32,000 nt of DNA, from contig NC_003276.1 of the NCBI RefSeq assembly GCF_000009705.1, forward strand, positions 30,001-62,000, written 5' to 3'. Made by a program: the position numbers and the translations under genes. Of the stretch, positions 1-31,924 are shown piece by piece. Source of the stretch: Nostoc sp. PCC 7120 = FACHB-418. Lineage in GTDB: Bacteria > Cyanobacteriota > Cyanobacteriia > Cyanobacteriales > Nostocaceae. Every line of letters begins with the position of its first letter. Position 1 is the first letter of the stretch. Below the pieces are notes generated by a model. That model was not told where the DNA came from. It ran no database searches and was given only the letters and a program-made list of their open reading frames with translations.

Positions 1-919
1 TTGCCGATACTGCCTTGTCAGCCTTCTTGCCTAAAGCCACCACCCAATCATCGATGCCCTTCTCTGGCCCTGGCAATAATGCGATACTACACTCGCAGCC
101 AGCGTCTTGGATGACATGGGCGGTGCGGCGTGTGGCTTGAAAGACTTGCAGTTGTGTCTTGGGTTTAGTTTCGTAATCAAACAGGATGATGAATCTGCGA
201 CCGGGTTGAGCCATCGGTACTAAGTCAGGGTGCAGCCGCTCGAAATCTTCCTTGCCGACGCGACCATTCCATATTCCAGGGAGTGCGATCGCGGCAAATC
301 CCAGAGATAATAGACAAGCCGCCTTCTTCTCACCTTCGGTAAGAGTAATCGTTATTTCGGGATGTGCCAGCACCCAAGCCCAGAATCCTAAAGCTTCACC
401 TTCTGGCGTGATGACGATATTCTCTGGCATCGGCACGTCATAGCGCAAAGATACCAACTGCCAAATGCTCAGGGTAACTCGGAAGTAACCCAGACGGTTC
501 GGGGTTTTGGGGGGAGACTCGTATTTGATTGGCTTCGGCGAAGAAGCAGTGGAAGCAAGGGAGGCAGGGGAGGAATGAATACTAAATTCTCCCCCTGCTC
601 CCCCTGCTGCACCCCTCCCCCTGCTGTGTTGTTCCCATTCCAGTCGCGGACAATCAGGCTTCAACCGTCCCCAGTCCATCGGCAGCCAGTCGTTGAGCGG
701 GTCGAGTCCACTGACCCACCAAGCATTAGTGATGTGGGCGTATAGTCGCAAATACCCAAACCGTAGCCGTCCGTCGTTTCTTCTGGCAGTTTGGGGTAAA
801 GCATACAACAAGTATTCGTATATTTCGTCTCCTAAGAGCGATCGCACGTTGAGCAAAATCAATTTTTCATCAACGCCACTGTTGAGCCATTCTTGCAAAT
901 GATGAGGTTCGAGATTCAT
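1..919 (-). CDS. Replication primase/helicase-like protein, N-terminal part (DUF3854/Toprim-like, CyRepA-type); the 3' end runs off the left edge
   Basis: Not in the ORF track because there is no stop in the window. My minus-strand translation from ATG 919-917 is MNLEPHHLQEWLNSGVDEKLILLNVRSL...RVTLSIWQLVSLRYDVPMPENIVITPEGEALGFWAWVLAHPEITITLTEGEKKAACLLSLGFAAIALPGIWNG...RFIILFDYETKPKT...LLPGPEKGIDDWVV, open to base 1. The TEGEKKA / ALPGIWN / ILFD / GIDDW blocks match the DUF3854 Toprim-like pattern I remember from cyanobacterial plasmid Rep proteins. Confidence 0.7.
   Translation of the reverse strand, partial: MNLEPHHLQEWLNSGVDEKLILLNVRSLLGDEIYEYLLYALPQTARRNDGRLRFGYLRLYAHITNAWWVSGLDPLNDWLPMDWGRLKPDCPRLEWEQHSRGRGAAGGAGGEFSIHSSPASLASTASSPKPIKYESPPKTPNRLGYFRVTLSIWQLVSLRYDVPMPENIVITPEGEALGFWAWVLAHPEITITLTEGEKKAACLLSLGFAAIALPGIWNGRVGKEDFERLHPDLVPMAQPGRRFIILFDYETKPKTQLQVFQATRRTAHVIQDAGCECSIALLPGPEKGIDDWVVALGKKADKAVSA
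550..626. repeat. G/C-rich imperfect palindrome with CCCCCTGCT tandem copies, embedded in frame in the rep gene
   Basis: GCAGGGGAGGAAT (564-576) faces ATTCTCCCCCTGC (586-598). CCCCCTGCT occurs at 591-599 and 600-608, and CCCCCTGCTG at 617-626. The stretch encodes the low-complexity peptide GRGAAGGAGGEFSIHSSPASLAS. Confidence 0.7.
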
Positions 920-3266: not shown

Positions 3267-3545
3267 TTAATCATCACTATCTTCTTCGCTCTCCTCCTGA
3301 GTTTCATCGAAGTTAACATCAAAACTTACGCCTAAAGCGGCTTCTATTCTTCTAAGTGTTGCCAGTGGAAGCGTTTTCATCTCTTCATTTTCAATCGCAT
3401 ACCAATTGGGAGTAGACATTCCAGCTAGAGCAGCTATTTCTTGCAGAGATCGTTTATCAATTTTTCTTGCGCGTCTAATTCTTTCTCCTAAACCAGGGAC
3501 TTCTTTACGAATCCGCTTTTCTACTTTCATCAAGCATGAACTCAC
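3267..3545 (-). CDS. XRE-family helix-turn-helix transcriptional regulator
   Basis: LGERIRRARKIDKRSLQEIAALAGMSTPNWYAIENEE...LATLRRIEAALGVSFD is a classic Cro/C1-type HTH. GTG start with GGAGG 7 nt upstream. Acidic C-terminal tail. Confidence 0.9.
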   Translation of the reverse strand: MSSCLMKVEKRIRKEVPGLGERIRRARKIDKRSLQEIAALAGMSTPNWYAIENEEMKTLPLATLRRIEAALGVSFDVNFDETQEESEEDSDD

Positions 3546-3926: not shown

Positions 3927-4122
3927 AAACAGAAACACATGGCTGCACAGAGGACAAATCCTCTCTACAGCCCTGCGCTGTTGCTTAAAAAAGTTTTATG
4001 AATGCTACGGGACGATCAACTATGCTCTTGCGTTACGCCATCTTTACGAAAGGCTGCACCAACGCAATTCATTGTGGTCGCCATCTCAATTACTGCTACT
4101 GCTTGTGACTAATTAAGAAACG

Positions 4123-4145
4123 GCTACGCCGAAGCGAGAGTGATG
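4123..4145 (+). repeat. Intergenic leader motif, copy 1 (short form)
   Basis: aaacgGCTACGCcgAAGCgagAGTGATG. Confidence 0.8.
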
Positions 4146-4171
4146 CGTTCTCCCCCACAACGTAGAAAAAC

Positions 4172-4213
4172 AAAGGCGATCGCTCTGGCTGAGAAACTTA
4201 GCGATCGCCCTTT
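4172..4213 (+). promoter_or_regulatory. HIP1-based hairpin between motif copy 1 and the 4234 start codon
   Basis: AAAGGCGATCGCT (4172-4184) pairs with AGCGATCGCCCTTT (4200-4213) with one bulge. There is no T-run. Confidence 0.45.
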
Positions 4214-4233
4214 ACTGAAATCAGGTCTATATT

Positions 4234-4722
4234 ATGTCATACGCAACAATAAACAAGCAAGCCCAAAGTCCGTTAACCGAGCAGGACAAACGAATCATCG
4301 CAAACATTATCCAACGCCATCCAGACGAAATCAAAACCATCTGGATAGACTGCGGAATCACGGTCTGGGTGCAACTCCAAGACGGTGGAAGACTACCCTT
4401 CGACAAAAATTGGTTCGCGCAAAGAGTGGCCCAAGAAAAGACTTCTCTAGATGCTCAAGAAAGCCTCCACAGGCACAACCAAAAATTAGAAACTGAATTA
4501 AATCAAGCCTGTTCTGAGTACGGTTTACAGCATGGCGAGATAGACTATTTGATGTTTTCAACGAAGGTTTATCGAGGTCGGGATTTAGTAGGATTCGTCG
4601 GGTTCAACAGATTCGGGAAGATGTGGAGTTATAGCCGCAGAGTGACAGAGCCTGATAAATACGCCCATAGTGCTGCTGATGCGCTCTCCAAGTTAGGCGT
4701 TAGGCAGTTAGCGACGGTGTAG
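4234..4722 (+). CDS. Hypothetical protein (162 aa)
   Basis: Balanced amino-acid composition. Preferred over the overlapping 118-aa ORF (4140-4496), which is extremely Arg/Lys/Pro-rich. Confidence 0.65.
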   Translation: MSYATINKQAQSPLTEQDKRIIANIIQRHPDEIKTIWIDCGITVWVQLQDGGRLPFDKNWFAQRVAQEKTSLDAQESLHRHNQKLETELNQACSEYGLQHGEIDYLMFSTKVYRGRDLVGFVGFNRFGKMWSYSRRVTEPDKYAHSAADALSKLGVRQLATV

Positions 4723-4730
4723 ATAAAAGT

Positions 4731-4762
4731 GCGATCGCTTGGGTTCTCTAACAAGCGATCGC
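4731..4762 (+). terminator. HIP1-based stem-loop downstream of the 162-aa gene
   Basis: GCGATCGCTTG (4731-4741) pairs with CAAGCGATCGC (4752-4762), an 11-bp perfect stem. The downstream U-tract is weak. Confidence 0.45.
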
Positions 4763-4839
4763 CTAAAATAATAGGTAAAGGCTATACAGTGCAGTAGTAA
4801 ACTAGCCACCGATTAACCGATTAATAGAAGGACTCAAAG

Positions 4840-5106
4840 ATGACCGAAGACAGCAGATTTGATGATATTTACCTGCGCCTCAATGAATTGACAGAGGATG
4901 TGACCAACCTGAAAATACAGGCAGGAACCATCGGTACATCTCAGGTAGCGATCGCGAGAACTTTGAGTTTAGCAACTGGATTGGCATCGGATATGCGAGA
5001 AGTCAAAGCAGAAATTCGTGACATGAAGGCTGATATTCGGAATTTGAACGCAGGGATGGAAGAAGTTTTAAGGCTATTGCGGCGTGGTAATAATTCTGAA
5101 GCATAG
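4840..5106 (+). CDS. Hypothetical coiled-coil protein (88 aa)
   Basis: Heptad-like charged repeats (REVKAEIRDMKADIRNLNAGMEEVLRLL). Confidence 0.6.
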   Translation: MTEDSRFDDIYLRLNELTEDVTNLKIQAGTIGTSQVAIARTLSLATGLASDMREVKAEIRDMKADIRNLNAGMEEVLRLLRRGNNSEA

Positions 5107-5122
5107 TTTAAGGTGATCAATA

Positions 5123-5419
5123 ATGATCAATGTTTGCCAAAAAATATTATGTCCGTACTTTGGGGAGAAAGGGCATAATTACGGTTGTCAGAGATATGCT
5201 TTGAGTAGTGGATGCCATCTGAAATTGATTACTCCGCTACAAGATAATGAGTACGTTTTATATACCGATGATGAGGAATTATTAGCATCATTTAAGGTAG
5301 AAAACGATAGGTTCTTTCAAGAAGATCCAAAATATGCAGAGGATTTGGAGTTCCAGCGAGAAAATCCAGAGTTATTTGCTGAACGTTCGTTTAAAGTCAG
5401 AGAAATTCAGACAAATTGA
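5123..5419 (+). CDS. Hypothetical protein with a Cys-rich N-terminus (98 aa)
   Basis: Four Cys (positions 5, 10, 22, 31) plus His in the first ~32 residues suggest a possible zinc-binding knuckle. AAGGTG RBS upstream. Confidence 0.55.
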   Translation: MINVCQKILCPYFGEKGHNYGCQRYALSSGCHLKLITPLQDNEYVLYTDDEELLASFKVENDRFFQEDPKYAEDLEFQRENPELFAERSFKVREIQTN

Positions 5420-5444
5420 TTTCGCTACTACACATAAAAATTAC

Positions 5445-5474
5445 AAGCGGTTTGTCCAGCACAGACCGCTTTTA
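5445..5474 (+). terminator. Rho-independent terminator
   Basis: AAGCGGTTTGT (5445-5455) pairs with ACAGACCGCTT (5461-5471) with one mismatch, followed by TTT. Confidence 0.6.
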
Positions 5475-5485
5475 TATTGGAGCGA

Positions 5486-5713
5486 ATGATAGAACAACCT
5501 CAAAACCAAAGATTATCTTAAGTACTAGCCGTAGATGGTATTTCTCAGCAACAAGCCCGTGCAAAATTAGCAGAAATATCTAGGCTATTAACTAAATTTC
5601 AACAAGTTTACTCCACAATTTATCAATATCTTTGCGCTAATGCAGAGGACGTAACTTTAGCTGATGCTATTCAAGCGGGGCTAACTAAAACGGCTACGCC
5701 AAAGCAGAAGTGA
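5486..5713 (+). pseudogene. Protein-like 75-codon reading frame interrupted by an in-frame TAA at 5519-5521
   Basis: MIEQPQNQRLS*VLAVDGISQQQARAKLAEISRLLTKFQQVYSTIYQYLCANAEDVTLADAIQAGLTKTATPKQK*. There is no ATG/GTG/TTG downstream of the TAA. The 3' end coincides with motif copy 2. Confidence 0.3.
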
Positions 5714-5715
5714 GA
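5693..5715 (+). repeat. Intergenic leader motif, copy 2 (short form)
   Basis: aaacgGCTACGCcaAAGCagaAGTGAGA. Confidence 0.8.
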
Positions 5716-5733
5716 CTCAAACCTCGTTATCTG

Positions 5734-5765
5734 ACAGGAGGGCGAAAAACTCTCCTGTTTTTTTT
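5734..5765 (+). terminator. Rho-independent terminator or attenuator
   Basis: ACAGGAG (5734-5740) pairs with CTCCTGT (5752-5758), followed by eight T. It sits 24 nt upstream of the ATG at 5789. Confidence 0.7.
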
Positions 5766-5788
5766 CAAGAATCAAACTATCAAAATAT

Positions 5789-5992
5789 ATGGCGAAAACT
5801 AAACAGATTCGGCAGGATTCAACGGCTGTATGTCTGCAATTCTTGCGGCGTTCTGGTGGCAAAGCAAGACTAAGTGAAATTAGCTTTAGCAGAAATACAG
5901 TTCAAAAACTGTTGAATCAGGGATTGGTCAAGGTACAGAGAACAGATATTGGTTACTACCTAGAATTAAAGGATGTAGAACTATGCAGTTAA
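5789..5992 (+). CDS. Small protein, possibly winged-helix DNA-binding (67 aa)
   Basis: LQFLRRSGGKARLSEISFSRNTVQKLLNQGLVKV has an HTH-plus-wing-like pattern. This is weak, by-eye evidence only. Confidence 0.5.
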   Translation: MAKTKQIRQDSTAVCLQFLRRSGGKARLSEISFSRNTVQKLLNQGLVKVQRTDIGYYLELKDVELCS

Positions 5993-6246
5993 ATCGAGTG
6001 TATGACAGTACTTTATTATCCTGTAAAAAGGTTTATCAAATTCAAGGTACATTGTACAAATATCTCTACAAAACAGGCACAATTCAGCATCCCAAGTACC
6101 ACTTTAGACCAATGCCAGGACAGCGTAAGAAAGCTGACTTATTGATTAATCACAAGACCTTAATTAATCGGTGTGAGGAAGTTGTAGGGATGCAAGTTAA
6201 CGCCACAGTAATTGATGAAAACGCGACGCAGATGAAGTTGTTTTAA
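5983..6246 (+). CDS. Hypothetical protein (87 aa)
   Basis: The start overlaps the upstream stop by 10 nt, which suggests translational coupling. Confidence 0.5.
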   Translation: MQLNRVYDSTLLSCKKVYQIQGTLYKYLYKTGTIQHPKYHFRPMPGQRKKADLLINHKTLINRCEEVVGMQVNATVIDENATQMKLF

Positions 6247-6250
6247 TAAT

Positions 6251-6439
6251 ATGAGCAAGTACAAACCCCGGATTATAAAACATCCTATCCGGTTGCAAAA
6301 AAATAACGCTCAAAAAATAATTTACCGGACAGTTAGAGATATTCAACAACTCAAAGATAGTTCCCCGATTGGTACAGCCACAATCAACAAACAATCAGTC
6401 ATGGTTCGGAAACAGGGGATGTATTGGGCTGTTGTTTAG
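6251..6439 (+). CDS. Hypothetical basic protein (62 aa)
   Basis: Begins 4 nt after the previous stop, on the same strand. Confidence 0.45.
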   Translation: MSKYKPRIIKHPIRLQKNNAQKIIYRTVRDIQQLKDSSPIGTATINKQSVMVRKQGMYWAVV

Positions 6440-6458
6440 TGAGTGAAATACTGTGAAA

Positions 6459-6488
6459 GCTACGCTTAAGCAAAGCGAAAAAATGAGG
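6459..6488 (+). repeat. Intergenic leader motif, copy 3 (long form)
   Basis: tgaaaGCTACGCttAAGCaaagcgaaaaAATGAGG. The GCTACGC core lies 39 nt upstream of the ATG at 6498. Confidence 0.75.
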
Positions 6489-6497
6489 TACTGAACA

Positions 6498-7559
6498 ATG
6501 GTACAAGCGATCGCTAACGAAACATTTCTAGCAGATGCAGTAGTTGAGCATTACAACTTTTCTAAGCTAAATAAAACTCGGATTCGGTTCAAAATTCAAC
6601 TCAAGAAAACCACTAAAAGCAATGCGCCGAAGTGGACTGATGTTTTGCAAGCGGATAACGAAGAAGAATCAGATTTACTCAAAGTTAAATCCTCGGAAGT
6701 TGGGTTGAAGGGCATCAAAGTCTTCAAAGCACTGGACGAAGCAGCAAGTCAATTGCGCTCTGAGATTGCATCGATTCAAGAGTGGATGAGTAACGACAAC
6801 GGGGATTGGATTTGTCCGATAGACCTCGCGCCCCTGGTGTGGAGTCAGTTGCTCAACATTAGAGATGTAGTTGCTCCTGATTTACGTGCTGGTTTAAAAA
6901 ATGAGTATGAAAAAGGTTTAGCTGATTACGTTGAGCGAATTGACAAATTCATCTCGTTAAATGTCTGGGATTTACCACCAGAAAAACGTGAGGAAGTTAA
7001 AGCGAACTTGCTCAAAGCTTTCCCATTACTGTCAGATTTGGAAGAATATCTGCAAGTAGTTATCGGTCGTCCGGTAATTATCCCGGCACTGTCTGAACAG
7101 TTGAACTCCGAGCAAGCCAAGTGCCTTCAACAGATAACCCAGTTCATTCAGCAGTACGACCAAAACCTAGAACAAAGGTTGAGGGAATCAGCGATCGCTG
7201 GAGGAGAACAACTAGCAGCCCAATTGCTAGATGAACTCGCCAACTGGGAACCAGGACGTAAGCCCGTGCTATTTAAGAAAAAGATGGATCAGCATCTTAA
7301 GCGGGTGCAGGTTTTATTGGCAAATGCCTCACCGGAGGCTGGAGCCAGTCTTGAGCAAATGATGAGTCACCTGGACTCAATCGTCAATGACCCAGGTATT
7401 ACCCAAAAGAACCTGGATTCACAAGGGCGATCTCAACTCCAGACGAAAATGGATACAATCTACTCCAAATTGTTGGACGAGCAACGCAATCTGCAACAGT
7501 TAGCAAGCAGCGATGTTGGGTTAACTCAAGCCACTGTTAAATCGTTTAAGTTCCGTTAG
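6498..7559 (+). CDS. Hypothetical protein (353 aa), possibly DUF3150-like
   Basis: Long clean ORF. Its general layout reminds me of the phage/plasmid DUF3150 family, which accompanies AAA ATPase and WGR genes in other mobile elements. This is unverified. Confidence 0.75.
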   Translation: MVQAIANETFLADAVVEHYNFSKLNKTRIRFKIQLKKTTKSNAPKWTDVLQADNEEESDLLKVKSSEVGLKGIKVFKALDEAASQLRSEIASIQEWMSNDNGDWICPIDLAPLVWSQLLNIRDVVAPDLRAGLKNEYEKGLADYVERIDKFISLNVWDLPPEKREEVKANLLKAFPLLSDLEEYLQVVIGRPVIIPALSEQLNSEQAKCLQQITQFIQQYDQNLEQRLRESAIAGGEQLAAQLLDELANWEPGRKPVLFKKKMDQHLKRVQVLLANASPEAGASLEQMMSHLDSIVNDPGITQKNLDSQGRSQLQTKMDTIYSKLLDEQRNLQQLASSDVGLTQATVKSFKFR

Positions 7560-7565
7560 AAAAAA

Positions 7566-7594
7566 GCGATGCCCTGAGAAATTCGGGGCATTGC
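7566..7594 (+). terminator. Stem-loop after the 353-aa gene
   Basis: GCgATGCCCtGAgaaaTCgGGGCATtGC is an imperfect stem with no clear T-run. Confidence 0.35.
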
Positions 7595-7621
7595 ACTAAT
7601 GCTAGTATTCCAGGTTTTATT

Positions 7622-8071
7622 ATGTCACATTTTACACAACTCAAAACTAAACTCACCAATCGTGATTGCTTAGTTCAAGCTCTAGAGGATTTGAAGCTTC
7701 AGCCCCATGTTTTTGAGCAACCGCAGCCGTTAGCTGGCTATTATATGGATTCGCAGGGGTACAGTGCAGAGATTATTATCTTCGGCAGGACAATCAAAGC
7801 CCGTGCAGACATTGGTTTTCGCTGGAATCAAAGCAGTGGTGTGTACGAGGTTATACACGATGAGTATGAAACATCTCCGCGACTTGGTGAAGATTTCTTC
7901 AGCCACAAGTTAATGCAGACTTACGGGCGGCGGATGGTTTTAGCCAAAACTGAAGAATTACGCGAAAAGTTTGGCGAATGCACGATTAGCGAAGAAACCA
8001 AAGGTCAAGTGCAAACCCTACGGTTGACTTTTGCAGGACATCAAGAAGTTAAACAATACGCCAGGAGATAA
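7622..8071 (+). CDS. DUF1257 (Ycf35-like) domain protein
   Basis: The N-terminus MSHFTQLKTKLTNRDCLVQALEDLKL matches the MSHF(T/S)xhKTxhxD...L..AL..LG opening characteristic of DUF1257, recalled from memory. Confidence 0.75.
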   Translation: MSHFTQLKTKLTNRDCLVQALEDLKLQPHVFEQPQPLAGYYMDSQGYSAEIIIFGRTIKARADIGFRWNQSSGVYEVIHDEYETSPRLGEDFFSHKLMQTYGRRMVLAKTEELREKFGECTISEETKGQVQTLRLTFAGHQEVKQYARR

Positions 8072-8074
8072 TCA

Positions 8075-8284
8075 ATGGAACGTTCTATACTGATACATTT
8101 CGATAACAAAACGGGTTCAGTGCGAGTAGAAGCTCTTGGGTTTGAGGGGTTGTCGTGTTTGGAAGCAACCCAGCCGTTTGAAGAAGCGTTAGGAGTTGTT
8201 GAGGGCGAACGAGAGTTTAAGCCCGAAGCGCAATCTCAGCAACTACGGACTAACAATAATCATCAGACTCGCTTGCGCCAGTAG
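8075..8284 (+). CDS. DUF2997 domain protein
   Basis: ILIHFDNKTGSVRVEALGFEGLSCLEATQPFEEALGVV fits the DUF2997 pattern (I.I..dG.v.iE..G..G.sC...T..lE.aLG). It starts 3 nt after the DUF1257 stop. Confidence 0.7.
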   Translation: MERSILIHFDNKTGSVRVEALGFEGLSCLEATQPFEEALGVVEGEREFKPEAQSQQLRTNNNHQTRLRQ

Positions 8285-8319
8285 TTAAGAAAAAGAGGGG
8301 TGAAAATCCCCTCAACATC

Positions 8320-8577
8320 ATGAACGAATTACCAAAAGAATACCCATTTATCCACGTTTATACACAGCAAAAAGCACATCAGCCGGTGATCATCAAAGGT
8401 AATACCGAAGGCTTATGTGTGCTTCTGAACGCCATAGTTACGGCAATTGCACACCGAGACTGTAACGGTGTAGCTGAAGTATTTGACGGCGATGCCGAAG
8501 TTTTTGAAGTGAGAGTTCAAATAGTTAAGACTCACTCTGAACTTGCACCACTACCGTATAAGGAATTACACCAATGA
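8320..8577 (+). CDS. Hypothetical protein (85 aa), translationally coupled to the AAA+ gene
   Basis: Its stop overlaps the ATPase ATG (ATGA at 8574-8577). It is preceded by the small hairpin GAGGGGtgaaaatCCCCTC. Confidence 0.55.
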   Translation: MNELPKEYPFIHVYTQQKAHQPVIIKGNTEGLCVLLNAIVTAIAHRDCNGVAEVFDGDAEVFEVRVQIVKTHSELAPLPYKELHQ

Positions 8578-10199
8578 ACCTAAATAATATATTCTCCACG
8601 CTGGATTCACAAATACCTATTGTGGCATTAGAAGTTCTCTCGCCAGAAGAAGCCACAATCATCCAGTGGTTAACAGCCAATGCACACGAGAAATTGAAAT
8701 CTGCGGTATTCTTCTGGAATCTGGGAGTATCGGGATTGGAACAGTGTGAGATTGCCTCTGATGGTGGGTTGGTATTTAAACCAGTACCAGAGTACAAAAA
8801 ACCACCCCACGCTGACCCGTTGTTGTACATTTTCGAGTACATTAACAATTTTGATGGTACAGGTGTATTTATCCTCAGTGATGTGCATCCATTTGTGGGC
8901 AAGAACTCGCCTCAACTGAGTTGGGAAATCCTCACACGGGTGAAGAACCTCTATCACCGACTCAAACCCACAGAAAAACGCATTATCTTCTTAGGTCAAA
9001 ATATCGAACTGCACGAGTCGCTAATTCGGCTGATTCCCTATGGTGAAGTGCCATTGCCAACCGTAGAACAAGTGCAAGAGCATATATATTCCTACCTCAA
9101 CTATTTGTCTGAATCTGCCATTGAACAAGACGTACTATTTCGTGTCCTGTTAAGTACTGAAGAAAGAGAAACTTTAGCACGGGCAGCTTTGGGATTAACT
9201 CTGGAGGAAATTAGTGATTTCTTGCGCTTGACTGTCAAAGAGCGTTTGAGTAGCAATGGTATTACTATTGATGCTACTGTTACGCCGATGGTAGTTGAGT
9301 ATAAAACTCGGCTACTCTCTCAAATGGGTATTGAGCTAGGTAAACCTGCACTCTACTCGTTCGGCGGACTTGATTTATTGCGTGAGTGGTTGAATCGGCG
9401 GCGCAAACTGTTCACGCAAGAAGCCAGAAACCTGCAACTGCCACAACCTAAAGGCATACTGCTGGCTGGCCCACCCGGAACGGGAAAAAGTCATTGTGCA
9501 AAGAATATTGCCAATATCCTCAATTTACCACTACTCAAGCTTGATATTGCTTCGATGCTTGGCTCTTTGGTAGGGGAGTCTGAGGGCAATGTCCGCCGCG
9601 CACTCAAGACAGCCGAAGCGATCGCACCCTGCGTTTTGTGGTTAGACGAGTTGGAAAAAGCCTTATCCGGGCAGGGTGATACAAGCGGTGTTTCCCAAAG
9701 AATACTCGGTACTGTCCTCACTTTCATGAGCGAATGTACTTCGGGGGTGTTTGTTGTCGCAACTTGCAATGACGTGACTGCACTCCCAACGGAACTCAAA
9801 CGCAAGGGTCGTTTCGATGAAACCTTCTTTGTAGATTTACCCTCAGAACCAGAGAGAGCGCAAATCCTCAAGATTCACCTGGAGCGATTCGGCATCAATG
9901 TAGAGTCAGAATACCTGGAAGCGATCGCCGCCAACACCTCTAAATTCTCTGGGGCGGAATTAGAAACTCTAGCATCTGAAGCCGCACTACTGGCATTCGA
10001 GCAAGAGCGACCCCAACAGGTGACTTTAGGAGACTTGGAAGAATGCCGTAAAACCATTACCCCACTTGCTGTCCAAGATGCGGCGGCGGTTGAGCGTATG
10101 AGGGAGTGGGCGAAAACTGCAAGGGCGGCATCAACGGCGATTGCGGATACAAAACCCACTCAGTCGATTAAAACTGCGCGGTATCGCAACATGAATTAA
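8574..10199 (+). CDS. AAA+ ATPase, Ycf46-like (N-terminal domain plus one classical AAA module)
   Basis: Walker A is GILLAGPPGTGKSHCAK and Walker B is VLWLDELEKAL. Sensor and arginine-finger region: ATCNDVTALPTELKRKGRFDETFFVDLP. The N-terminus (IPIVALEVLSPEEATIIQWL) resembles cyanobacterial/plastid Ycf46. Confidence 0.9.
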   Translation: MNLNNIFSTLDSQIPIVALEVLSPEEATIIQWLTANAHEKLKSAVFFWNLGVSGLEQCEIASDGGLVFKPVPEYKKPPHADPLLYIFEYINNFDGTGVFILSDVHPFVGKNSPQLSWEILTRVKNLYHRLKPTEKRIIFLGQNIELHESLIRLIPYGEVPLPTVEQVQEHIYSYLNYLSESAIEQDVLFRVLLSTEERETLARAALGLTLEEISDFLRLTVKERLSSNGITIDATVTPMVVEYKTRLLSQMGIELGKPALYSFGGLDLLREWLNRRRKLFTQEARNLQLPQPKGILLAGPPGTGKSHCAKNIANILNLPLLKLDIASMLGSLVGESEGNVRRALKTAEAIAPCVLWLDELEKALSGQGDTSGVSQRILGTVLTFMSECTSGVFVVATCNDVTALPTELKRKGRFDETFFVDLPSEPERAQILKIHLERFGINVESEYLEAIAANTSKFSGAELETLASEAALLAFEQERPQQVTLGDLEECRKTITPLAVQDAAAVERMREWAKTARAASTAIADTKPTQSIKTARYRNMN

Positions 10200-10203
10200 T
10201 AAC

Positions 10204-10242
10204 GAGAGCAATTGCTATTTTTAATAAGATAGCAATCGCTCT
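10204..10242 (+). terminator. Long stem-loop after the AAA+ gene
   Basis: GAGAGCAATTGCTAT (10204-10218) pairs with ATAGCAATCGCTCT (10229-10242). Confidence 0.45.
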
Positions 10243-10321
10243 GATTGCAAAATTCTGAACATCGCCTATAACTTAGAAGCAATTATTTCTTGTTTCAATA
10301 CAAAAATTCAGGAATAGGAAG

Positions 10322-10564
10322 ATGCCCCAAATGCCTGAATTTACCAAAGTGAACTCTCTTGAAACACCAACTGCTGTTTATTCAGTGGGGAAAATTATCA
10401 AGTTCTGGGATATAGGCGAACGAGCTTGGCTCAAAGGTAAGATTACGGCGATAACTCAGTGTGAAGGGTATTTTGTGAGCGCCACAGTTTCACACCAGAG
10501 CTTCAAAAAGAAGCGAGAAATCCAGATAAATCGGGAAGATTGGCTAGATACGAAAACTGAGTAA
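10322..10564 (+). CDS. Hypothetical protein (80 aa)
   Basis: ORF with an AGGAA-type RBS. VGKIIKFWDIGERAWLKGKITAI hints at a small beta-barrel (Tudor/SH3-like) fold. Speculative. Confidence 0.5.
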   Translation: MPQMPEFTKVNSLETPTAVYSVGKIIKFWDIGERAWLKGKITAITQCEGYFVSATVSHQSFKKKREIQINREDWLDTKTE

Positions 10565-10602
10565 TTTATCAATTGCTTCTGCTGTATTTAGGAAAAGTAA
10601 TT

Positions 10603-10625
10603 GCTACGCAAAAGCAAAAGTGATG
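10603..10625 (+). repeat. Intergenic leader motif, copy 4 (short form)
   Basis: taattGCTACGCaaAAGCaaaAGTGATG. The GCTACGC core lies 40 nt upstream of the GTG at 10643. Confidence 0.8.
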
Positions 10626-10642
10626 ATTAGAGGATTAATCTT

Positions 10643-11188
10643 GTGGAAATATATTTAGTTTTTGTTGATGCTGCCAGTAACAGCAATAAGTTTTGGACAG
10701 CTAAAGTTGAACAAAATCAGCTAACTGTCCAATGGGATCGAGTGGGGTACAAAGCCCAAACGAAAGTTCATCAATTCACAAGTCAAGCGCAAGCTGCAAA
10801 TAAATATAATAATCTAGTTTTTGAAAAGAAGGCTAAAGGCTACCAAGAGAGTCAGCCCCAGATAGAATCATGTGGTGTTGTGGATATAAGGAGAGCAATG
10901 CAACTATTAAATGGTTTACGCTCTTACGTAACTAATAGAAATTTCAATGCTGATTACATTAACCTATTGAATCAATATTTAAAAATCATTCCTACACCTT
11001 TAGGAATGCAGCTAGAGCCTTATAGGATTTTCACAAGTGTTGCAGATGTAGACCATCAACGCGAACTGCTCAGTTCTCTAATTCCTGCAACTCCTGTAGC
11101 TGTAACTCAGGCTAAACAAATGCCAGAATCACAAGAGAAGATTGTTAGCCTCAGAGGTATTCACAAAAATCTTTGGCGGCATTTCTAG
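10643..11188 (+). CDS. WGR-domain protein with a PARP-helical-domain-like C-terminal half and no ADP-ribosyltransferase domain
   Basis: SNKFWTAKVEQNQLTVQWDRVGYKAQTKVHQFTSQAQAANKYNNLVFEKKAKGY matches WGR (sNKFY...WGRiG...f.s..eA...f..l...K..KGY), with WDRVG in place of WGRIG. The C-terminus LLNQYLKIIPTPLGMQLEPYRIFTSVADVDHQRELLSSL aligns by eye with human PARP1 [37 protein letters not shown], recalled from memory. GTG start with an AGAGGA RBS. Confidence 0.75.
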   Translation: MEIYLVFVDAASNSNKFWTAKVEQNQLTVQWDRVGYKAQTKVHQFTSQAQAANKYNNLVFEKKAKGYQESQPQIESCGVVDIRRAMQLLNGLRSYVTNRNFNADYINLLNQYLKIIPTPLGMQLEPYRIFTSVADVDHQRELLSSLIPATPVAVTQAKQMPESQEKIVSLRGIHKNLWRHF

Positions 11189-11202
11189 AGGCTACTATTA
11201 AA

Positions 11203-11236
11203 CCCAAAGTGATACTAAATCAGTAACCACTTTGGG
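11203..11236 (+). terminator. Stem-loop after the WGR gene
   Basis: CCCAAAGTG (11203-11211) pairs with CACTTTGGG (11228-11236), a perfect 9-bp stem. An AT-rich 240-bp spacer follows. Confidence 0.5.
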
Positions 11237-11457
11237 CAATCGATTCAACTACAAAATCATTGTGGCACAAATATCATCTTGTTGTGTGCATGACTTCTAA
11301 ATATTAACTAAATATTCACAAACATAAAAGTTGGTAATGGTTTCATTTTAGTTGCTAAAGAGTTATTTTTAAATTATGACAAAGCTTAATCAAGCAAGTA
11401 TTATAATAGTTGATATAAACTTTCTATAAATGACGTTATAGCCACAAATAATAAACA

Positions 11458-11486
11458 GCTACGCTAAAGAAAAACGATAATGAATG
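11458..11486 (+). repeat. Intergenic leader motif, copy 5 (long form, most diverged)
   Basis: aaacaGCTACGCtaAAGAaaaacgatAATGAATGG. The GCTACGC core lies 41 nt upstream of the second in-frame ATG (11499). Confidence 0.65.
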
Positions 11487-12389
11487 GGAGAAAAGCTCAT
11501 GGTAAATGAAGTGAAGTTAGGATTAGGTAATCCACCACATCCTATTTACTTGTATGTCAAAAATGAAGAAATGGGCGGTGAACAGTATGTCTGGTATAAA
11601 TACATTATTAATAGTAAAGAAAAAATCCCTGTCCACCAGAGAGCTTTGACTGGATATATTTGTGAACTCAGGCTCAGAGAGAAAGACTATAAAGGTCAAG
11701 ACAACCTTAAGCTAGATATTGTGATTTCGGCAGACGAACTTTATGTAATTAGAAGCGGCATCAATACCAATTTTGCCAAATCATTTTTACTCGCTGCATC
11801 CGTAGTAGAAGATTTTTCAAAACCTTTAACAATTGTGGTTAATCCTGGTAATGAAACTGTTGTCTTTTGCAGCCTTTATGATGCTCAGTCTAAGACTAAG
11901 ATTCGTAGAGATTGGGATGCTAAGGCTGATTTTGCCGGCATAATTCAAGATATACAATCAAGGTTGTCTTTTGCTATCAAATATGAAATTGATGATGAGG
12001 ATATTTTCGGCTTAGAACAACTAAGTACAGTCAAACTGCACTCAAATTCTGTCCCAAAATCAAAAGCCATTGCTCCGCCAGTACATCCACAAGATACACG
12101 AGTTAGACAAATCCGCACACTGTTGGACTATCCTGTTGACTTGATTAAAGAGTGGCTCCAGTTTCAGGATGCGAAAGCGCCAAGTCAGCTTCCACAAGCA
12201 TCTATTGACGAACTGGTAAAAACCATGTGTTTGGCTTGGGCGGCTCCTAAAGCTGACCCTTACCGTGCTGAAACTACTTATCAGCAGCAGGTATTGGAGG
12301 CGATCGCCAATGGCACTGATGAAGTTACTGCTATCAGGGAATGGATGAACTATGTTGTAGGGCAAAGGGCGGCTGTGGCTGCACGGTAA
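11484..12389 (+). CDS. Hypothetical protein (301 aa; the alternative start at 11499 has the better RBS, GGGAGA)
   Basis: Long clean ORF followed by a strong terminator. No motif I can name. Confidence 0.75.
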   Translation: MGEKLMVNEVKLGLGNPPHPIYLYVKNEEMGGEQYVWYKYIINSKEKIPVHQRALTGYICELRLREKDYKGQDNLKLDIVISADELYVIRSGINTNFAKSFLLAASVVEDFSKPLTIVVNPGNETVVFCSLYDAQSKTKIRRDWDAKADFAGIIQDIQSRLSFAIKYEIDDEDIFGLEQLSTVKLHSNSVPKSKAIAPPVHPQDTRVRQIRTLLDYPVDLIKEWLQFQDAKAPSQLPQASIDELVKTMCLAWAAPKADPYRAETTYQQQVLEAIANGTDEVTAIREWMNYVVGQRAAVAAR

Positions 12390-12403
12390 GAATTTGCATT
12401 GTT

Positions 12404-12432
12404 AAAGACAATCTTCTAGGTTGTCTTTTTTT
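12404..12432 (+). terminator. Rho-independent terminator
   Basis: AAAGACAA (12404-12411) pairs with TTGTCTTT (12421-12428), with a T-run to 12432. Confidence 0.7.
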
Positions 12433-12455
12433 CTTAAACATCAAAAGGAATTGTT

Positions 12456-12611
12456 ATGGCAAAGAAAAAATGGTCTGTAAAGCGCATCACCGTAAATTTG
12501 GCTTCAACTGAAGTAGAGACATTGGAAGATTATTGCACTGCCACTGGTAGACCGGCGGCAGATGTAATTCGTGAGTTGATTAGAAAACTAAAAATAGAAG
12601 CAATAGCCTGA
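12456..12611 (+). CDS. Ribbon-helix-helix (CopG/Arc/MetJ-like) small DNA-binding protein (51 aa)
   Basis: Below the ORF-track size cutoff. My translation is MAKKKWSVKRITVNLASTEVETLEDYCTATGRPAADVIRELIRKLKIEAIA*. The layout is a beta strand (KRITVNL) followed by two helices. AAAGGAA RBS. Confidence 0.6.
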   Translation: MAKKKWSVKRITVNLASTEVETLEDYCTATGRPAADVIRELIRKLKIEAIA

Positions 12612-13339: not shown

Positions 13340-13849
13340 ATGACTACCATAGAAACTTCACGTTTATTATTGCGTCCATTGAAGCTCACAGATTTAGAGG
13401 ACTTAGCACAAATATACAGCAATCCTGAAGTGATGAAGTATCGTTTATTTCCTAAACCAACTTCACTTCTGGAAACTCAAGCTTTTTTAGAATCCTACAT
13501 TGCACATTGGCAGCGATATGGGTTTGGTCGATGGGCAACGATTTATAAAGCCAATGAGCAACTAATAGGGCATTGTGGGCTAGAACATATAGAATTTCTT
13601 AACAAAGTGGAAGTGAATTATTTACTCGCAAGCCAATATTGGGGACAGGGGTTAGCAACAGAATCCGCTATTGCCGTTGTCAACTATGGTTTTGAAGTCC
13701 AGCAATTCGAGCGATTAGTAGCACTGGCTAAACCAGATAATCTCGCATCACTTCGAGTCATGGAAAAAATAGGCATGAGCTATCAAACTAAAATCCGACT
13801 CCATAATGTAGAGTGGGTACTCTATGAAATAGAGCGCCAACTGCATTAA
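13340..13849 (+). CDS. GNAT family N-acetyltransferase (RimJ/RimL-like)
   Basis: TSRLLLRPLKLTDLEDLAQIYSNPEVMKY... and QYWGQGLATESAIAVVNYGF (Q/RxxGxG/A acetyl-CoA loop) are typical of the RimJ/RimL subgroup. Confidence 0.85.
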   Translation: MTTIETSRLLLRPLKLTDLEDLAQIYSNPEVMKYRLFPKPTSLLETQAFLESYIAHWQRYGFGRWATIYKANEQLIGHCGLEHIEFLNKVEVNYLLASQYWGQGLATESAIAVVNYGFEVQQFERLVALAKPDNLASLRVMEKIGMSYQTKIRLHNVEWVLYEIERQLH

Positions 13850-19436: not shown

Positions 19437-21257
19437 ATGCAGCAAACAATACCAATGCTAGGCACAAAAGAAACGGCACTGTTACGTGGCGATTATCCCA
19501 GTATTGAGTATTTGGAAGCTGGCAACATCGCTTCTTGGTTACAGGAGCGTCAAGACCAACTACTCATCCGTGCTAGAGATGAACGTAATGGCATGAACCT
19601 TGCCAAGTTCATCACTTTGGCGACGGCGGCCACTGGTGCTGTTTGCTATGCCACTTCCCCGCTTGCTCCTATCGGTGCGGTAGTGGCTGGAATTGGGTAT
19701 CTCTGGTCAATAGTGCAAGACATCAACGACACTCACCAATTCGCTCCTATCCCCTTTATTCGCGGTAACTTTGTTGAGTTCCTCTCGGCAATGGGTGACA
19801 GCGTTGCTAGGGACGAATATTTTGCTAACAAAAATGAACTGGCTGACTTGATGCTCCACTTAGAGCCAATGGAGAAATATGAGTTCGCCATGCTCAAGCA
19901 ATCATCTCATGTGGTGTGTGAATACTTGAGCGTCGTTGAGCCTGGAAAAAGGTTTTATGCTTACCGTTGGTTACTTGATTGGTTCATTCAGTTGCGTGGG
20001 CAGTTCCCAACCCGTGATCAATTGTCTGGGCATTTAGCGCAAGTGACAATTGACCCACGAGTAAATTACCAACAAGTAACAGTTATTCAAGAAGCTATTA
20101 AACCCCAAAATCTTGGTATTCCACCTGCAAGGTTTGTTGAATTACCTTCTGCTGTGAATCAACCAGTAGAGGACAAGACTGTTACTATAATCCCAAGCGC
20201 CCAAGCGCCTTCTATATCTAACCCGTCCTTGGGGACAGTAGTTTCTAGTTATGAGCCTACCCCAACTGCGATTGTTAACACGGAAATCTCCACCTACACC
20301 AGTAAACCTCAACGACAGTATGACCTCATTGGACATATTGCCAAGAAAGTGACAAATATGCTGTGGGTTGGTGTCCCTGGTTCCGGCAAGGGCATCACTA
20401 TTAGCAATGCTATTGATGCCATCAAGCGATCGCATAGAGGCATACACATTTTTTACATTGACCCCAAAGGTGATGAGAAAGAAACTGGTTATTTCACTGG
20501 TCGCGTTGACACTTTAAAACGTGCCAAGATTCTGGAAATGTCACCCATTGAGGCAGTCAAGTGGGTCAAAGACTGTTTTGCCGAGTTTCAACTTATCACT
20601 GGGGACAAGCTCATTATTCTGGATGAAGGTACGGCGGTTTGTTCCAAATTCAAGAATGCTAAGAATGAAATTGGTTGGCTCAAGGACAAAATCATTTCCT
20701 ACTGTTCTTGTGGTGATAGTTCTGGTTGGCACTTCTGGATAGTCGTGCAGAATCCCCATACTGATGATTTGGGTATTTCTGGGGGACTGCGATCGCAATT
20801 AACTTCTGTCGCATTGGTTCACCCAGATAATGTACCAGCTTACAATGCCATGATTGCCACGCAGTTGATTCCCAGCGATCGCAAAATTACTTCGACGCAA
20901 GTGATGGAGATTGCGGCACAATCACCTGTAGGTCGAGCAGTGTATTACGGCGGGTTGAACGAATGGTTCCCCATGCAGTTGCTACAAAACTTCTCTGGCT
21001 ACGACCGGGATAATAAAAAGTTTCTGGATACACCAAAGATTAATGATTCCTCTCAAGTAGCAGATTTAGATGCAACTGAAACATCCCAAAGTCAGTCTCA
21101 ACGGGTACTAGCACTTTTGGAACGTACTACTGCATCCTCACTCGATGAATTTATCTACAACGAGTTGAAATTAGACGGGACTCAAGCCGATTTAGTACGT
21201 GTGGGGATTGAGAAATTACTTAAGGATTCTCCTTTGAAATACAAATTTGACGGGTGA
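19437..21257 (+). CDS. Membrane-anchored P-loop NTPase, FtsK/SpoIIIE/TraB-like DNA-translocase candidate
   Basis: TM segment FITLATAATGAVCYATSPLAPIGAVVAGIGYLWSIV. Walker A is WVGVPGSGKG and Walker B is KLIILDEG. GWHFWIVVQNPHTDDLGISGGLRSQLTSVAL resembles the FtsK motif G(I)HLI.ATQRP..D.I...IK.N...RIA. Confidence 0.7.
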   Translation: MQQTIPMLGTKETALLRGDYPSIEYLEAGNIASWLQERQDQLLIRARDERNGMNLAKFITLATAATGAVCYATSPLAPIGAVVAGIGYLWSIVQDINDTHQFAPIPFIRGNFVEFLSAMGDSVARDEYFANKNELADLMLHLEPMEKYEFAMLKQSSHVVCEYLSVVEPGKRFYAYRWLLDWFIQLRGQFPTRDQLSGHLAQVTIDPRVNYQQVTVIQEAIKPQNLGIPPARFVELPSAVNQPVEDKTVTIIPSAQAPSISNPSLGTVVSSYEPTPTAIVNTEISTYTSKPQRQYDLIGHIAKKVTNMLWVGVPGSGKGITISNAIDAIKRSHRGIHIFYIDPKGDEKETGYFTGRVDTLKRAKILEMSPIEAVKWVKDCFAEFQLITGDKLIILDEGTAVCSKFKNAKNEIGWLKDKIISYCSCGDSSGWHFWIVVQNPHTDDLGISGGLRSQLTSVALVHPDNVPAYNAMIATQLIPSDRKITSTQVMEIAAQSPVGRAVYYGGLNEWFPMQLLQNFSGYDRDNKKFLDTPKINDSSQVADLDATETSQSQSQRVLALLERTTASSLDEFIYNELKLDGTQADLVRVGIEKLLKDSPLKYKFDG

Positions 21258-23240: not shown

Positions 23241-23402
23241 ATGATGTTTCTAGAACTAACCATATCATCTGGTGATGGCTTAACATCCGGCATCGGCATT
23301 TATCTGACTATCCCTGATAGTGCAACAATTGAACTGATTGCCATTGTCCAAGGTGACACTTATTCGAGTCTGGACGCTAGTTACTTTAACTATTTGGGCT
23401 GA
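23241..23402 (+). CDS. Possible small ORF or gene fragment (53 aa)
   Basis: MMFLELTISSGDGLTSGIGIYLTIPDSATIELIAIVQGDTYSSLDASYFNYLG*. The tail resembles the C-termini of cyanobacterial Ca-binding/RTX-like exoproteins, so it may be a remnant. Confidence 0.3.
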   Translation: MMFLELTISSGDGLTSGIGIYLTIPDSATIELIAIVQGDTYSSLDASYFNYLG

Positions 23403-23469
23403 TTGTTTGTTAAAAGCTAATCGTATGGTGGTAGCCAAAAATTTATCTACCATGTTTATAAATATTGAT

Positions 23470-24247: not shown

Positions 24248-24363
24248 CGCATAGGTTGAAACACAGGGGAAATGTCAATACAACTGGTTCTTTAAGTTAT
24301 TTTTGAGAAGATGAAAATAACACCAGTATTTAATTCTCCACTTTTACTTTGAAAGTAATAACT

Positions 24364-24386
24364 GCGAATTGCGAATTGCGAATTGC
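24364..24386. repeat. Heptamer tandem repeat (GCGAATT x3), STRR-like
   Basis: GCGAATTGCGAATTGCGAATTGC. Confidence 0.85.
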
Positions 24387-24426
24387 CTATGTCTATCCCC
24401 TCACCCTGGCAACCTTAGAAACTAGC

Positions 24427-31700: not shown

Positions 31701-31924
31701 TGGCTTTTCCTTGCTTCCCCCGATGGGTACATATGTTAGCTGTAGCACCTGCTATTCACTTTGAAGCCTGGGGGCATAAATTGCAACTCCGCATAACTTG
31801 ATAGAAATTGCAATACAGTTTTATCCACTTTTACATACATCATTGTGCTGATATAGATGCTAAAACCTGCATCTAACCTTTCATAAAAGCTGAAGGACTA
31901 AGAGATTATTTATAAAGTAAATCT

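Follow-up and report, generated by a model that had tools for sequence, protein, structure and literature searches.

DUF3150 proteins (PF11348) are encoded together with a CobS-like AAA_5 ATPase and a CobT-like vWA protein on proteobacterial plasmids, integrative and conjugative elements and phages. The MoxR-vWA ternary systems, conflict systems that are enriched in multicellular bacteria including cyanobacteria, and on mobile DNA, contain a third protein, which the chaperone and its co-chaperone are proposed to restructure (Kaur, Burroughs, Iyer & Aravind 2020, eLife, PMC7159879). A gene cluster at positions 6498–12611 of a 32,000-nucleotide stretch of Nostoc sp. PCC 7120 DNA (the whole stretch is termed the window) is compared here with these systems. 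The sequence of the window matches that of the alpha-type plasmid in Nostoc/Anabaena sp. PCC 7120 and its sister strains, and the cluster is built around a helical protein of an unnamed family (g1), a DUF1257 protein (g2), a DUF2997 protein (g3) and a Ycf46-type AAA+ ATPase (g5). This core resembles a new form of the ternary (three-part) ATP-driven systems that mobile elements carry, and does not look like an ordinary operon.

An earlier note on this DNA had reported nine co-directional genes between these positions, and all nine open reading frames (ORFs) are found there on the + strand:

6498..7559, + strand: g1, alr7042-type, 353 residues, a helical protein of an unnamed family
7622..8071, + strand: g2, DUF1257 (Ycf35-like), 149 residues (Pfam 2.4e-19; phrog_20456)
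8075..8284, + strand: g3, DUF2997, 69 residues (Pfam 1.8e-13; phrog_23133)
8320..8577, + strand: g4, 85 residues, its stop overlapping the g5 start (ATGA)
8574..10199, + strand: g5, Ycf46-type classical AAA+ ATPase, 541 residues (Pfam AAA 1.4e-29, plus AAA_lid_3)
10322..10564, + strand: g6, 80 residues, between the AAA and WGR genes at a position whose content varies
10643..11188, + strand: g7, WGR-HD protein, 181 residues, GTG start (Pfam WGR 8e-21)
11484..12389, + strand: g8 (alr7049), 301 residues, of a Nostocales-only family
12456..12611, + strand: g9, CopG/RHH-like, 51 residues, with weak Pfam matches below cut-off

The region is syntenic at 72–81% DNA identity on other Nostoc/Trichormus plasmids and in 80 more Nostocales loci, so that the nine ORFs are taken as real genes. 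The overlap between g4 and g5 suggests translational coupling of the two. Searches of Pfam, NCBIfam, PHROGs and PADLOC assign no family to g1, g4, g6 or g8; for g4, PADLOC returns only a marginal Cmr5 match (E 0.038).

Conservation separates these genes into a core and a set of additions. The comparison covered 80 Nostocales loci encoding g1 relatives and three plasmid loci (83 in all), each searched for the window's proteins, with denominators that count the loci long enough to be informative. DUF1257 (g2) and DUF2997 (g3) are each present in 68 of 69 loci and the AAA protein (g5) in 62 of 63, and the 85-residue g4, sought by BLASTP, is found in 43 of 68. Further downstream, the WGR gene (g7) recurs in 50 of 58 loci at about 4–6.5 kb from g1 and the g8 family in 22 of 54, whereas g6 (4/62) and g9 (3/52) are rare. 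Two small ORFs lie immediately left of g1, outside the nine-gene interval:

5983..6246, + strand: u5, an 87-residue ORF with no match in the family scans
6251..6439, + strand: u6, a 62-residue ORF between u5 and g1 with no match in the family scan

The first of these is found in 57 of 70 loci, roughly 0.45–0.9 kb upstream of g1, and is probably part of the conserved unit; the second is found in 36 of 72. The conserved unit is (u5)-g1-DUF1257-DUF2997-(g4)-AAA, to which the main Nostocales lineage adds a downstream WGR-HD gene and, at one place or another in the block, a g8-type domain. The nine genes therefore form a composite and not a single system, the 80-residue (g6) and ribbon-helix-helix (RHH; g9) genes being local, lineage-specific additions. 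The earlier idea of the nine genes as a single set fails at g6 and at g9, the g8 family being variable in position and form, while the co-occurrence outside this replicon that it called for stands for g1, DUF1257, DUF2997 and AAA, and extends to the WGR gene. Several genomes hold more than one locus: Nostoc sp. WHI, for example, has four, while N. flagelliforme FACHB-838, KVJ20 and N. foliaceum have three apiece, which is consistent with one locus per plasmid. Copies are also present on a near-complete genome sequence of 8.7 Mb (L027) and on a contig of 1.1 Mb (L026), and the module is therefore not limited to plasmid-sized replicons.

The strongest link to the known ternary systems comes from the partners of g1 homologues elsewhere. 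The most divergent g1 relative, used as a tblastn query, leads to homologues on Chroococcidiopsis and Acaryochloris plasmids, and hhalign connects these to the g1 family with a probability of 99.6% for pCHRO.01 of Chroococcidiopsis (E 1.2e-23, 311 columns) and of 99.2% for pREB2 of Acaryochloris (E 5.5e-20); the two g1 sub-families are additionally joined by pairwise BLASTP. On pCHRO.01, pREB2, a Nostoc contig and a metagenome contig (L101, L102, L104, L105), the g1 homologue is followed by a MoxR-type ATPase, which matches E. coli RavA at 1.9e-38 and carries the Pfam domains bpMoxR, AAA_5 and AAA_lid_8, and a vWA protein is encoded by the next or next-but-one gene after it. Pfam detects neither a MoxR (AAA_3/AAA_5) ATPase nor a vWA protein among the nine window genes. 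The g1 family is thus the constant component, and its partners are either a classical AAA+ ATPase with DUF1257 and DUF2997 or a MoxR (AAA_5) ATPase with vWA. The analogy to AAA+/vWA modules drawn in the earlier note is directly supported by these loci, and the substitution it had imagined, a Ycf46-type ATPase in place of CobS and DUF1257/DUF2997 in place of vWA, is seen directly within cyanobacterial plasmids.

The window's own motor and its small partners are well defined at the family level. The g2 protein scores 69.9 bits against a cut-off of 22.2 across the full-length DUF1257 profile, and g3 scores 50.6 bits against 24.1 for DUF2997. The g5 ATPase comprises an N-terminal domain of about 280 residues, followed by a single classical-clade AAA domain at 295–421 and AAA_lid_3 at 448–490. 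Its translation shows intact Walker motifs (Walker A GPPGTGKS, Walker B DE) and an arginine-finger region. It matches phrog_8638 over residues 94–530 (2e-100), its nearest solved structures are Cdc48/p97/VAT (1e-56 to 2e-59), and UniRef names it 'AAA domain-containing protein ycf46'. These Pfam matches and the UniRef name, together with the WGR match of g7, agree with the domain calls made earlier from the letters alone (DUF1257, DUF2997, Ycf46-type AAA and WGR). The family-specific N-terminal domain is conserved from residue 1 in the homologues of L099, L103, L011 and the Rhodobacter phage RcTiptonus.

The ATPase and its small partners also travel on phages. An IMG/VR viral contig of unidentified host (L004) encodes AAA, DUF1257 and DUF2997 proteins, the first a full-length ATPase homologue of 35% identity, and RcTiptonus encodes the AAA protein with DUF2997 two genes downstream. 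Homologues of g5 alone are present in 92 phage records, among them phages of Mycobacterium (cluster O), Vibrio and Pseudomonas. Where phages carry the ATPase/adaptor set, no g1 homologue is detected beside it. Two unusual gene products touch the same set. On plasmid pC052_F of Nostoc sp. C052 (L103, 10088–10654), a 188-residue protein annotated as DUF2997 begins with the N-terminal signature MSH-I-S-H-I-K typical of DUF1257 and matches DUF2997 at residues 136–163; it may be a DUF1257-DUF2997 fusion, in which case the two proteins would by that token act together. A 458-residue Anabaena cylindrica protein (P0305), labelled 'AAA family ATPase / ycf46', falls into the same 90%-identity cluster as g2 and is either a fusion or a mis-called gene.

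The g1 protein, which is 100% identical to BAB78126, belongs to a family restricted to cyanobacterial plasmids and elements and to some metagenome contigs. A profile search of 1.84 billion representative proteins yields only 53 relatives and no chromosomal or plastid counterpart; no relative is found in IMG/VR, and tblastn gives no match in phage records. The AlphaFold2 model (predicted local distance difference test, pLDDT, 72) consists mainly of long helices with small, short beta elements. The most distant full-length relatives, at 17–25% identity, still adjoin DUF1257 and/or AAA genes (L009–L011, L097, L099, L103). Specifically, a g1-like gene is directly followed by DUF1257 in L009 and L010, and L011 holds in order a g1-like gene, a 148-residue DUF1257-like gene (3e-13 to g2), a DUF2997-like gene and a 524-residue AAA gene, after which come a DUF3991/Toprim primase, a methyltransferase and a large helicase. 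L099, a metagenome contig of 76 kb that also encodes a phage lysozyme, carries the g1-like/DUF1257/AAA string and, after it, three large genes of no assigned function and a ThiF (E1-like) gene at 20277–21020, a possible link of the module to ubiquitin-like conjugation.

The earlier note had guessed that g1 is a DUF3150 protein, and this is not upheld by the family searches. PF11348 gives no match to g1 in Pfam at E<=0.1, and none at E<=1 for 19 members of the g1 family (g1 and 18 relatives, some at 16–25% identity). No precomputed Pfam domain falls on the g1 homologues listed (120 of the 127 found), and a homologue search seeded with a MoxR-linked g1 relative returns 30 proteins, none with a Pfam domain. 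Profile searching of PDB sequences with g1 does not yield DUF3150, and the g1 model has no significant Foldseek match in the PDB. Against BFVD, Foldseek at E<=1e-3 aligns the g1 model with four phage proteins of 291–346 residues (E 2.7e-5 to 8.7e-4, probability 1.0), a group that widens to 284–346 residues and E 2.7e-5 to 7.5e-3 when weaker matches are included. One match is annotated DUF3150 (E 8.7e-4), and the matches have TM-scores of 0.26–0.33 and a root-mean-square deviation above 16 Å. The fold link between g1 and DUF3150 is thus a weak, model-based lead and not proof. DUF3150 is not among the annotations of the IncC plasmid pAR060302 or of the WGR loci of Agrobacterium, Rhizobium and Ralstonia.

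Phage proteins near the ATPase were compared with the g1 family as well, and hhalign finds no similarity to gp94 of Mycobacterium phage Dylan, to gp59 of RcTiptonus or to the 432-residue protein of L004. A 275-residue Dylan protein is a weak Foldseek match to the g1 model (E 0.02). Dylan gp94 (L013 6418–7245), which adjoins the AAA ATPase gene, also has 275 residues, and no other annotated coding sequence of that length is seen among Dylan genes 1–81 and 87–108; gp94 may be the protein behind the Foldseek match. ParB-like and Ku-like genes lie a few genes from the Dylan ATPase (L013 8779–10287 and 11028–11263).

Downstream of the core, the four remaining genes differ in how widely they are shared and in what they resemble. 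The g6 slot is occupied by other small ORFs on other plasmids. The g7 protein contains a WGR domain at residues 1–72 (74.4 bits against a cut-off of 22), followed by a PARP-type helical (HD-like) region at about 80–151. The PARP_reg match (1e-3, 19.6 bits) lies below the cut-off of 26.8; a profile of 16 g7 orthologues matches the WGR structure 2ra8 at 7.9e-11 and the PARP1 HD region at 1.4e-4, the latter collinear and with no single stretch passing alone. PADLOC adds a marginal WGR_XIII match (E 0.0053). After a variable linker, the C-terminal tail VSL[KR]xIxKNxWRH is strongly conserved and may serve as a docking peptide. With its end at residue 181, g7 has no ADP-ribosyltransferase catalytic domain, and none of the nine genes gives a match to one. 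Small stand-alone WGR genes are also found on Agrobacterium and Rhizobium conjugative plasmids, directly after traC-traD-traG and before a thermonuclease gene (L007 9725–10813; L012 11983–12728), and small WGR proteins therefore recur in plasmid backbones.

The g8 protein is predicted, in an AlphaFold2 model of pLDDT only 58, to begin with a beta-rich domain and to end with a helical one, the two joined by a disordered linker. Its family counts 426 homologues, all in Nostocales, several per plasmid and none with a Pfam domain. The full-length form occurs in 8 loci, and in 30 loci the N-terminal domain (residues 7–132) is encoded as a separate protein of about 150–185 residues located 0.6–3.8 kb, mostly 1.4–2.9 kb, upstream of g1. 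Searches with g8 give no significant solved-structure or fold match, and the weak Foldseek neighbours are mostly OB-fold binders of single-stranded DNA. The neighbouring DUF5895 protein of Nostoc plasmid pNPM1 was considered as a g8 counterpart and rejected on comparison. Finally, g9 matches RHH_1 (5e-3, 17.2 bits against 20.5) and RepB-RCR_reg (1.3e-3, 19.1 against 21), both below cut-off; the earlier RHH call for this gene draws support from these two matches and from the CopG-family annotation of orthologues in L001 and L002, and the scores leave it short of a firm assignment.

A shared leader element extends across the block. The motif GCTACGCNNAAGM has five exact copies in the window, every one on the + strand, and a divergent regulator gene stands before the first of them:

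3267..3545, - strand: XRE/Cro-type HTH regulator (Pfam HTH_19 6e-07, HTH_31, HTH_3), divergent from the + strand block
4123..4135, + strand: leader motif copy 1, GCTACGCCGAAGC, exact match
5693..5705, + strand: leader motif copy 2, GCTACGCCAAAGC, exact match
6459..6471, + strand: leader motif copy 3, 39 nucleotides before the g1 ATG
10603..10615, + strand: leader motif copy 4, 40 nucleotides before the g7 GTG
11458..11470, + strand: leader motif copy 5, 26 nucleotides before the g8 ATG and kept before the g8 orthologue in L001

The exact copies before g1, g7 and g8 are those noticed earlier as a motif common to three leaders. Allowing one mismatch, six matches are found where 0.69 are expected, a number reached in 0 of 100 shuffles. 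Across related loci totalling 1.24 Mb, 18 exact copies lie on the gene strand and 0 on the other, with about 0.8 expected per strand. Alignment of 72 distinct Nostocales regions upstream of g1 places a conserved GCTWCGCT core about 45 nucleotides before the ATG, followed by an A-rich tract and then by a GAGGT ribosome-binding site; the short core AGCTWCGCT by itself is not enriched in the window, the enrichment being confined to the longer motif. The bases around GC-TAC-GC covary among the window copies (AAGC..GCTT, CGGC..GCCG, TTGC..GCAA), and these compensatory flanks indicate that the element is a small palindrome or hairpin. As judged from its sequence, the element may be an operator or leader element of a common regulon, and the sharing of it hints at co-regulation of the block genes, for which the divergent XRE protein and g9 are candidate regulators. 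An HTH regulator also heads the block on homologous plasmids. Copies 1 and 2 lie to the left of g1, and the co-regulated block therefore exceeds the nine genes. The co-directional + strand run begins at about position 4100, so the left boundary of the nine-gene set is arbitrary; homologous plasmid blocks comprise about 30 co-directional genes.

Within the block, possible transcript ends and the nearest landmark on the left are marked by the following features:

10196..10227: 20-nucleotide palindrome TTAATAACGAGAGCAATTGC / GCAATTGCTATTTTTAATAA, beginning at the g5 stop codon
12404..12428, + strand: terminator-like hairpin followed by a T-run, 3' of g8
8..919, - strand: CyRepA1-type plasmid replication gene, of which the window's left edge leaves only the N-terminal third, context outside the module

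The palindrome may mark the end of a g1–g5 transcription unit. The ORF at 8..919 matches the CyRepA1 protein of Trichormus variabilis plasmid A in tblastn (40% identity over 313 residues, E 5e-47), which confirms the neighbouring replication region that had been proposed. Rfam and tRNA scans of the window return nothing. Between the replication gene and the block lies a gene for a DUF1392 protein (1e-69; 1833–2291, - strand), which recurs near the module in Nostoc pNPM1 (L100 1620–2108), where the upstream - strand genes near the module include dnaB, an MT-A70 methyltransferase, BRO and DUF5131. To the right of the cluster the window contains GNAT acetyltransferase genes at 13340–13849 (+) and 23338–24024 (+), the latter adjoined by an aminoglycoside-2''-adenylyltransferase match (Pfam 1.9e-34) at 24349–24960 (+), a complete RecD2-type helicase gene at 25237–27483 (-) with OB, HHH, AAA_30, SH3_13 and UvrD_C_2 domains, and a TPS/filamentous-haemagglutinin-type gene at 28131–31748 (-). 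On Acaryochloris pREB2, TPS/filamentous-haemagglutinin-type and GNAT genes likewise come just after the g1-like/MoxR/vWA locus (L102 14574–17813); the same two gene kinds near both loci hint at a common plasmid backbone that differs only in its ATPase cassette. A RecD2-like gene is also located near the g1-like/bpMoxR/vWA locus of metagenome contig L105 (1–225).

By analogy with the MoxR-vWA ternary systems, we give about even credence to the view that g1, DUF1257, DUF2997, the optional 85-residue protein and the Ycf46-type AAA+ ATPase form a conserved, ATP-driven mobile-element module, a variant of the ternary systems that serves the element carrying it. In such a module, the AAA+ hexamer would use the DUF1257-DUF2997 pair as a co-chaperone or adaptor, as MoxR uses vWA, and would spend ATP to assemble, disassemble or switch a g1-based complex, with g1, helical and without enzymatic activity, as its scaffold or client. 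A tie to ends, nicks or single strands of the element's DNA would be provided in Nostocales by the nucleic-acid-binding WGR-HD protein and perhaps by an OB-like domain of g8. The service rendered could be establishment, maintenance, or conflict with the host or with rival elements. Because the module is found once per plasmid and lytic phages that infect unrelated hosts also have the ATPase/adaptor set, it most likely serves the mobile element and not host metabolism.

Several points weigh against this proposal. The ATPase is the only recognisable enzymatic domain, and no effector domain is recognised among the nine genes. The WGR and g8 genes are attached only in Nostocales and are absent from L011, L099, L101–L103 and the phage loci, so that a link to DNA may be no inherent property of the core; the OB-fold resemblance of g8, moreover, falls short of significance and comes from a low-confidence model (pLDDT 58). 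The roles given to DUF1257, DUF2997 and g1 are argued from gene order and analogy only. On cyanobacterial chromosomes, DUF2997 and ycf35 are neighbours that cluster with the ferredoxin gene fed7 and not with an ATPase (PMC4284462), and the adaptor role is for this reason not the sole possible reading of these families. A literature search on DUF1257/DUF2997, DUF3150, Ycf46 and alr7042–alr7049 found no functional work.

A bolder form of the proposal, which we put forward only tentatively, treats g1 and DUF3150 as divergent members of one fold family that supplies an invariant client or scaffold, while motor and adaptor are interchangeable cassettes. Such cassettes would comprise the classical AAA+ ATPase with DUF1257 and DUF2997, a MoxR/RavA-like ATPase with vWA, and a CobS-like ATPase with a CobT-like vWA protein. 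The resulting machine would act soon after plasmid or phage DNA comes in, governing an early step such as its establishment or counter-defence, and in Nostocales a non-catalytic, PARP-like WGR-HD sensor would couple it to DNA ends or nicks.

Among the explanations that compete with a ternary module, the most plausible, though doubtful, is the one raised in the earlier note, in which the block would be a conjugative leading region, its genes switched on soon after arrival in the recipient to serve establishment and anti-defence. The single orientation of all genes from about 4100 to 12611, the co-directional blocks of about 30 genes on homologous plasmids and the strand-specific leader motif (18 against 0) fit this view, but no oriT is recognised in the window, the window ORFs scanned include no recognised relaxase, coupling protein or type IV secretion system family, and the nearest landmark is the replication gene and not a transfer origin. 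Even a replication gene is found no more than 10 kb from g1 in just 6 of the 83 loci. Several host plasmids are typed as conjugative, yet other carriers are typed as non-mobilizable, and the copies on the 8.7-Mb and 1.1-Mb sequences are likewise difficult to accommodate. Gene content is similarly divided: the conjugative-type DUF3991/Toprim primase and the methyltransferase and helicase genes after the module in L011, the small WGR genes directly after traG on Rhizobiaceae conjugative plasmids, and the ATPase/adaptor set on phages speak for this view, whereas the ArdA, PsiB, SSB, ArdC and methylase families are absent among the nine genes in Pfam, PHROGs and PADLOC.

Next in plausibility, and unlikely, is an anti-phage or anti-plasmid defence (conflict) system of the host or plasmid, comparable to the MoxR-vWA ternary systems or to IetAS, with g1 as sensor or scaffold. 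The g1 family does occur within MoxR-vWA triples of the kind described as conflict systems, and the module is mobile and patchy, with accessory genes that vary around a fixed core; however, it is also near-universal, single-copy per plasmid and fixed in place, in the manner of a backbone gene set and not of a defence island, and the same ATPase/adaptor set is found on lytic phages. The g5 AAA domain resembles IetA (PADLOC 1.7e-25; NCBIfam IteA 2.4e-24), but the IteA score of 86 bits falls far below the cut-off of 510 and covers the generic AAA domain only, and the IetS protease is absent from the cluster. No nuclease, protease, TIR or pore effector domain is detected by Pfam or PADLOC, and other PADLOC families are not significant, the marginal non-AAA matches being those to Cmr5 on g4 and WGR_XIII on g7.

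The last explanation, that the plasmid carries extra copies of housekeeping Ycf46/Ycf35 as photosynthesis-related or carbon-uptake cargo benefiting the host, draws on the identity of DUF1257 with the Ycf35 family, on the UniRef ycf46 name of g5 and on the adjoining of DUF2997 and ycf35 on cyanobacterial chromosomes (PMC4284462), but is very improbable given the carriage by phages of non-photosynthetic hosts. Full-length ATPase homologues accompanied by DUF1257 and/or DUF2997 occur in the IMG/VR contig (35% identity) and in the Rhodobacter phage, and the ATPase alone occurs in Mycobacterium, Vibrio and Pseudomonas phages. The module is, besides, always joined to g1, which is without a chromosomal or plastid counterpart among the 1.84 billion representatives, and is present once per plasmid on several plasmids of one cell.

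The ternary-module reading brings DUF1257, DUF2997, the Ycf46-type ATPase and the g1 family into one defined, testable unit. Large cyanobacterial plasmids are almost unexplored functionally, and the module is present on most large Nostoc plasmids, including those of the model strain PCC 7120. One partner protein would here be served by two unrelated AAA+ motor/adaptor pairs, which bears on client choice in both MoxR-vWA and Cdc48-like systems. If the module is an establishment or counter-defence device, it matters for plasmid biology, for cyanobacterial genetic tools and for the reading of plastid ycf35 and ycf46.

Comparison with described systems places the locus between several of them. The resemblance to IetAS is confined to the AAA domain of g5, which stays at 86 bits against the 510-bit cut-off, and the IetS partner is missing from the cluster. 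PARP1–3 share with g7 a WGR domain followed by a region matching the PARP regulatory helical domain, in the order seen in PARP1; unlike them, g7 has no ADP-ribosyltransferase domain, its HD match is sub-threshold, and it ends in a conserved C-terminal tail of its own. Cdc48/p97/VAT, hexameric motors directed by small adaptors, provide the best solved-structure matches to the g5 AAA domain, whereas g5 has a single AAA ring, an unrelated N-terminal domain and, as read from its translation, L-V instead of an aromatic residue in pore loop 1; the window encodes no ubiquitin-like tag, in contrast to the distant L099 locus with its ThiF/E1-like gene nearby.

The Ycf46, Ycf35 and DUF2997 proteins of cyanobacteria and red-lineage plastids belong to the same domain families, and their ATPase has the same plan of an N-terminal domain and one AAA module. 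The arrangement differs, since here the genes form one tight string with g1 on plasmids, whereas chromosomes pair DUF2997 and ycf35 with fed7; a kinship of g5 to the chromosomal or plastid Ycf46 is suggested by its UniRef name. The DUF3150 systems share a protein of about 300–350 residues encoded beside an AAA+ gene on mobile DNA, and g1 homologues, though not g1 of the window itself, pair with an AAA_5 ATPase and vWA as DUF3150 does, but none of the 19 g1-family members is similar to DUF3150 at the level of hidden Markov models, and the TM-scores are 0.26–0.33.

Differences from the MoxR-vWA ternary systems concern the motor, its partner and the third protein: the window ATPase belongs to the classical Cdc48/FtsH-like clade and not to MoxR, DUF1257 and DUF2997 replace vWA, the window components carry no fused effector domain, and g1 consists mostly of long helices with no Pfam domain, in contrast to VMAP-C, described as a mixed alpha+beta domain (PMC7159879). 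The likeness lies in the overall plan, an AAA+ ATPase, a co-chaperone-like partner and a family-specific, largely helical third protein encoded side by side, and it becomes direct at the loci where g1 homologues are themselves the third gene of bpMoxR/AAA_5 and vWA triples.

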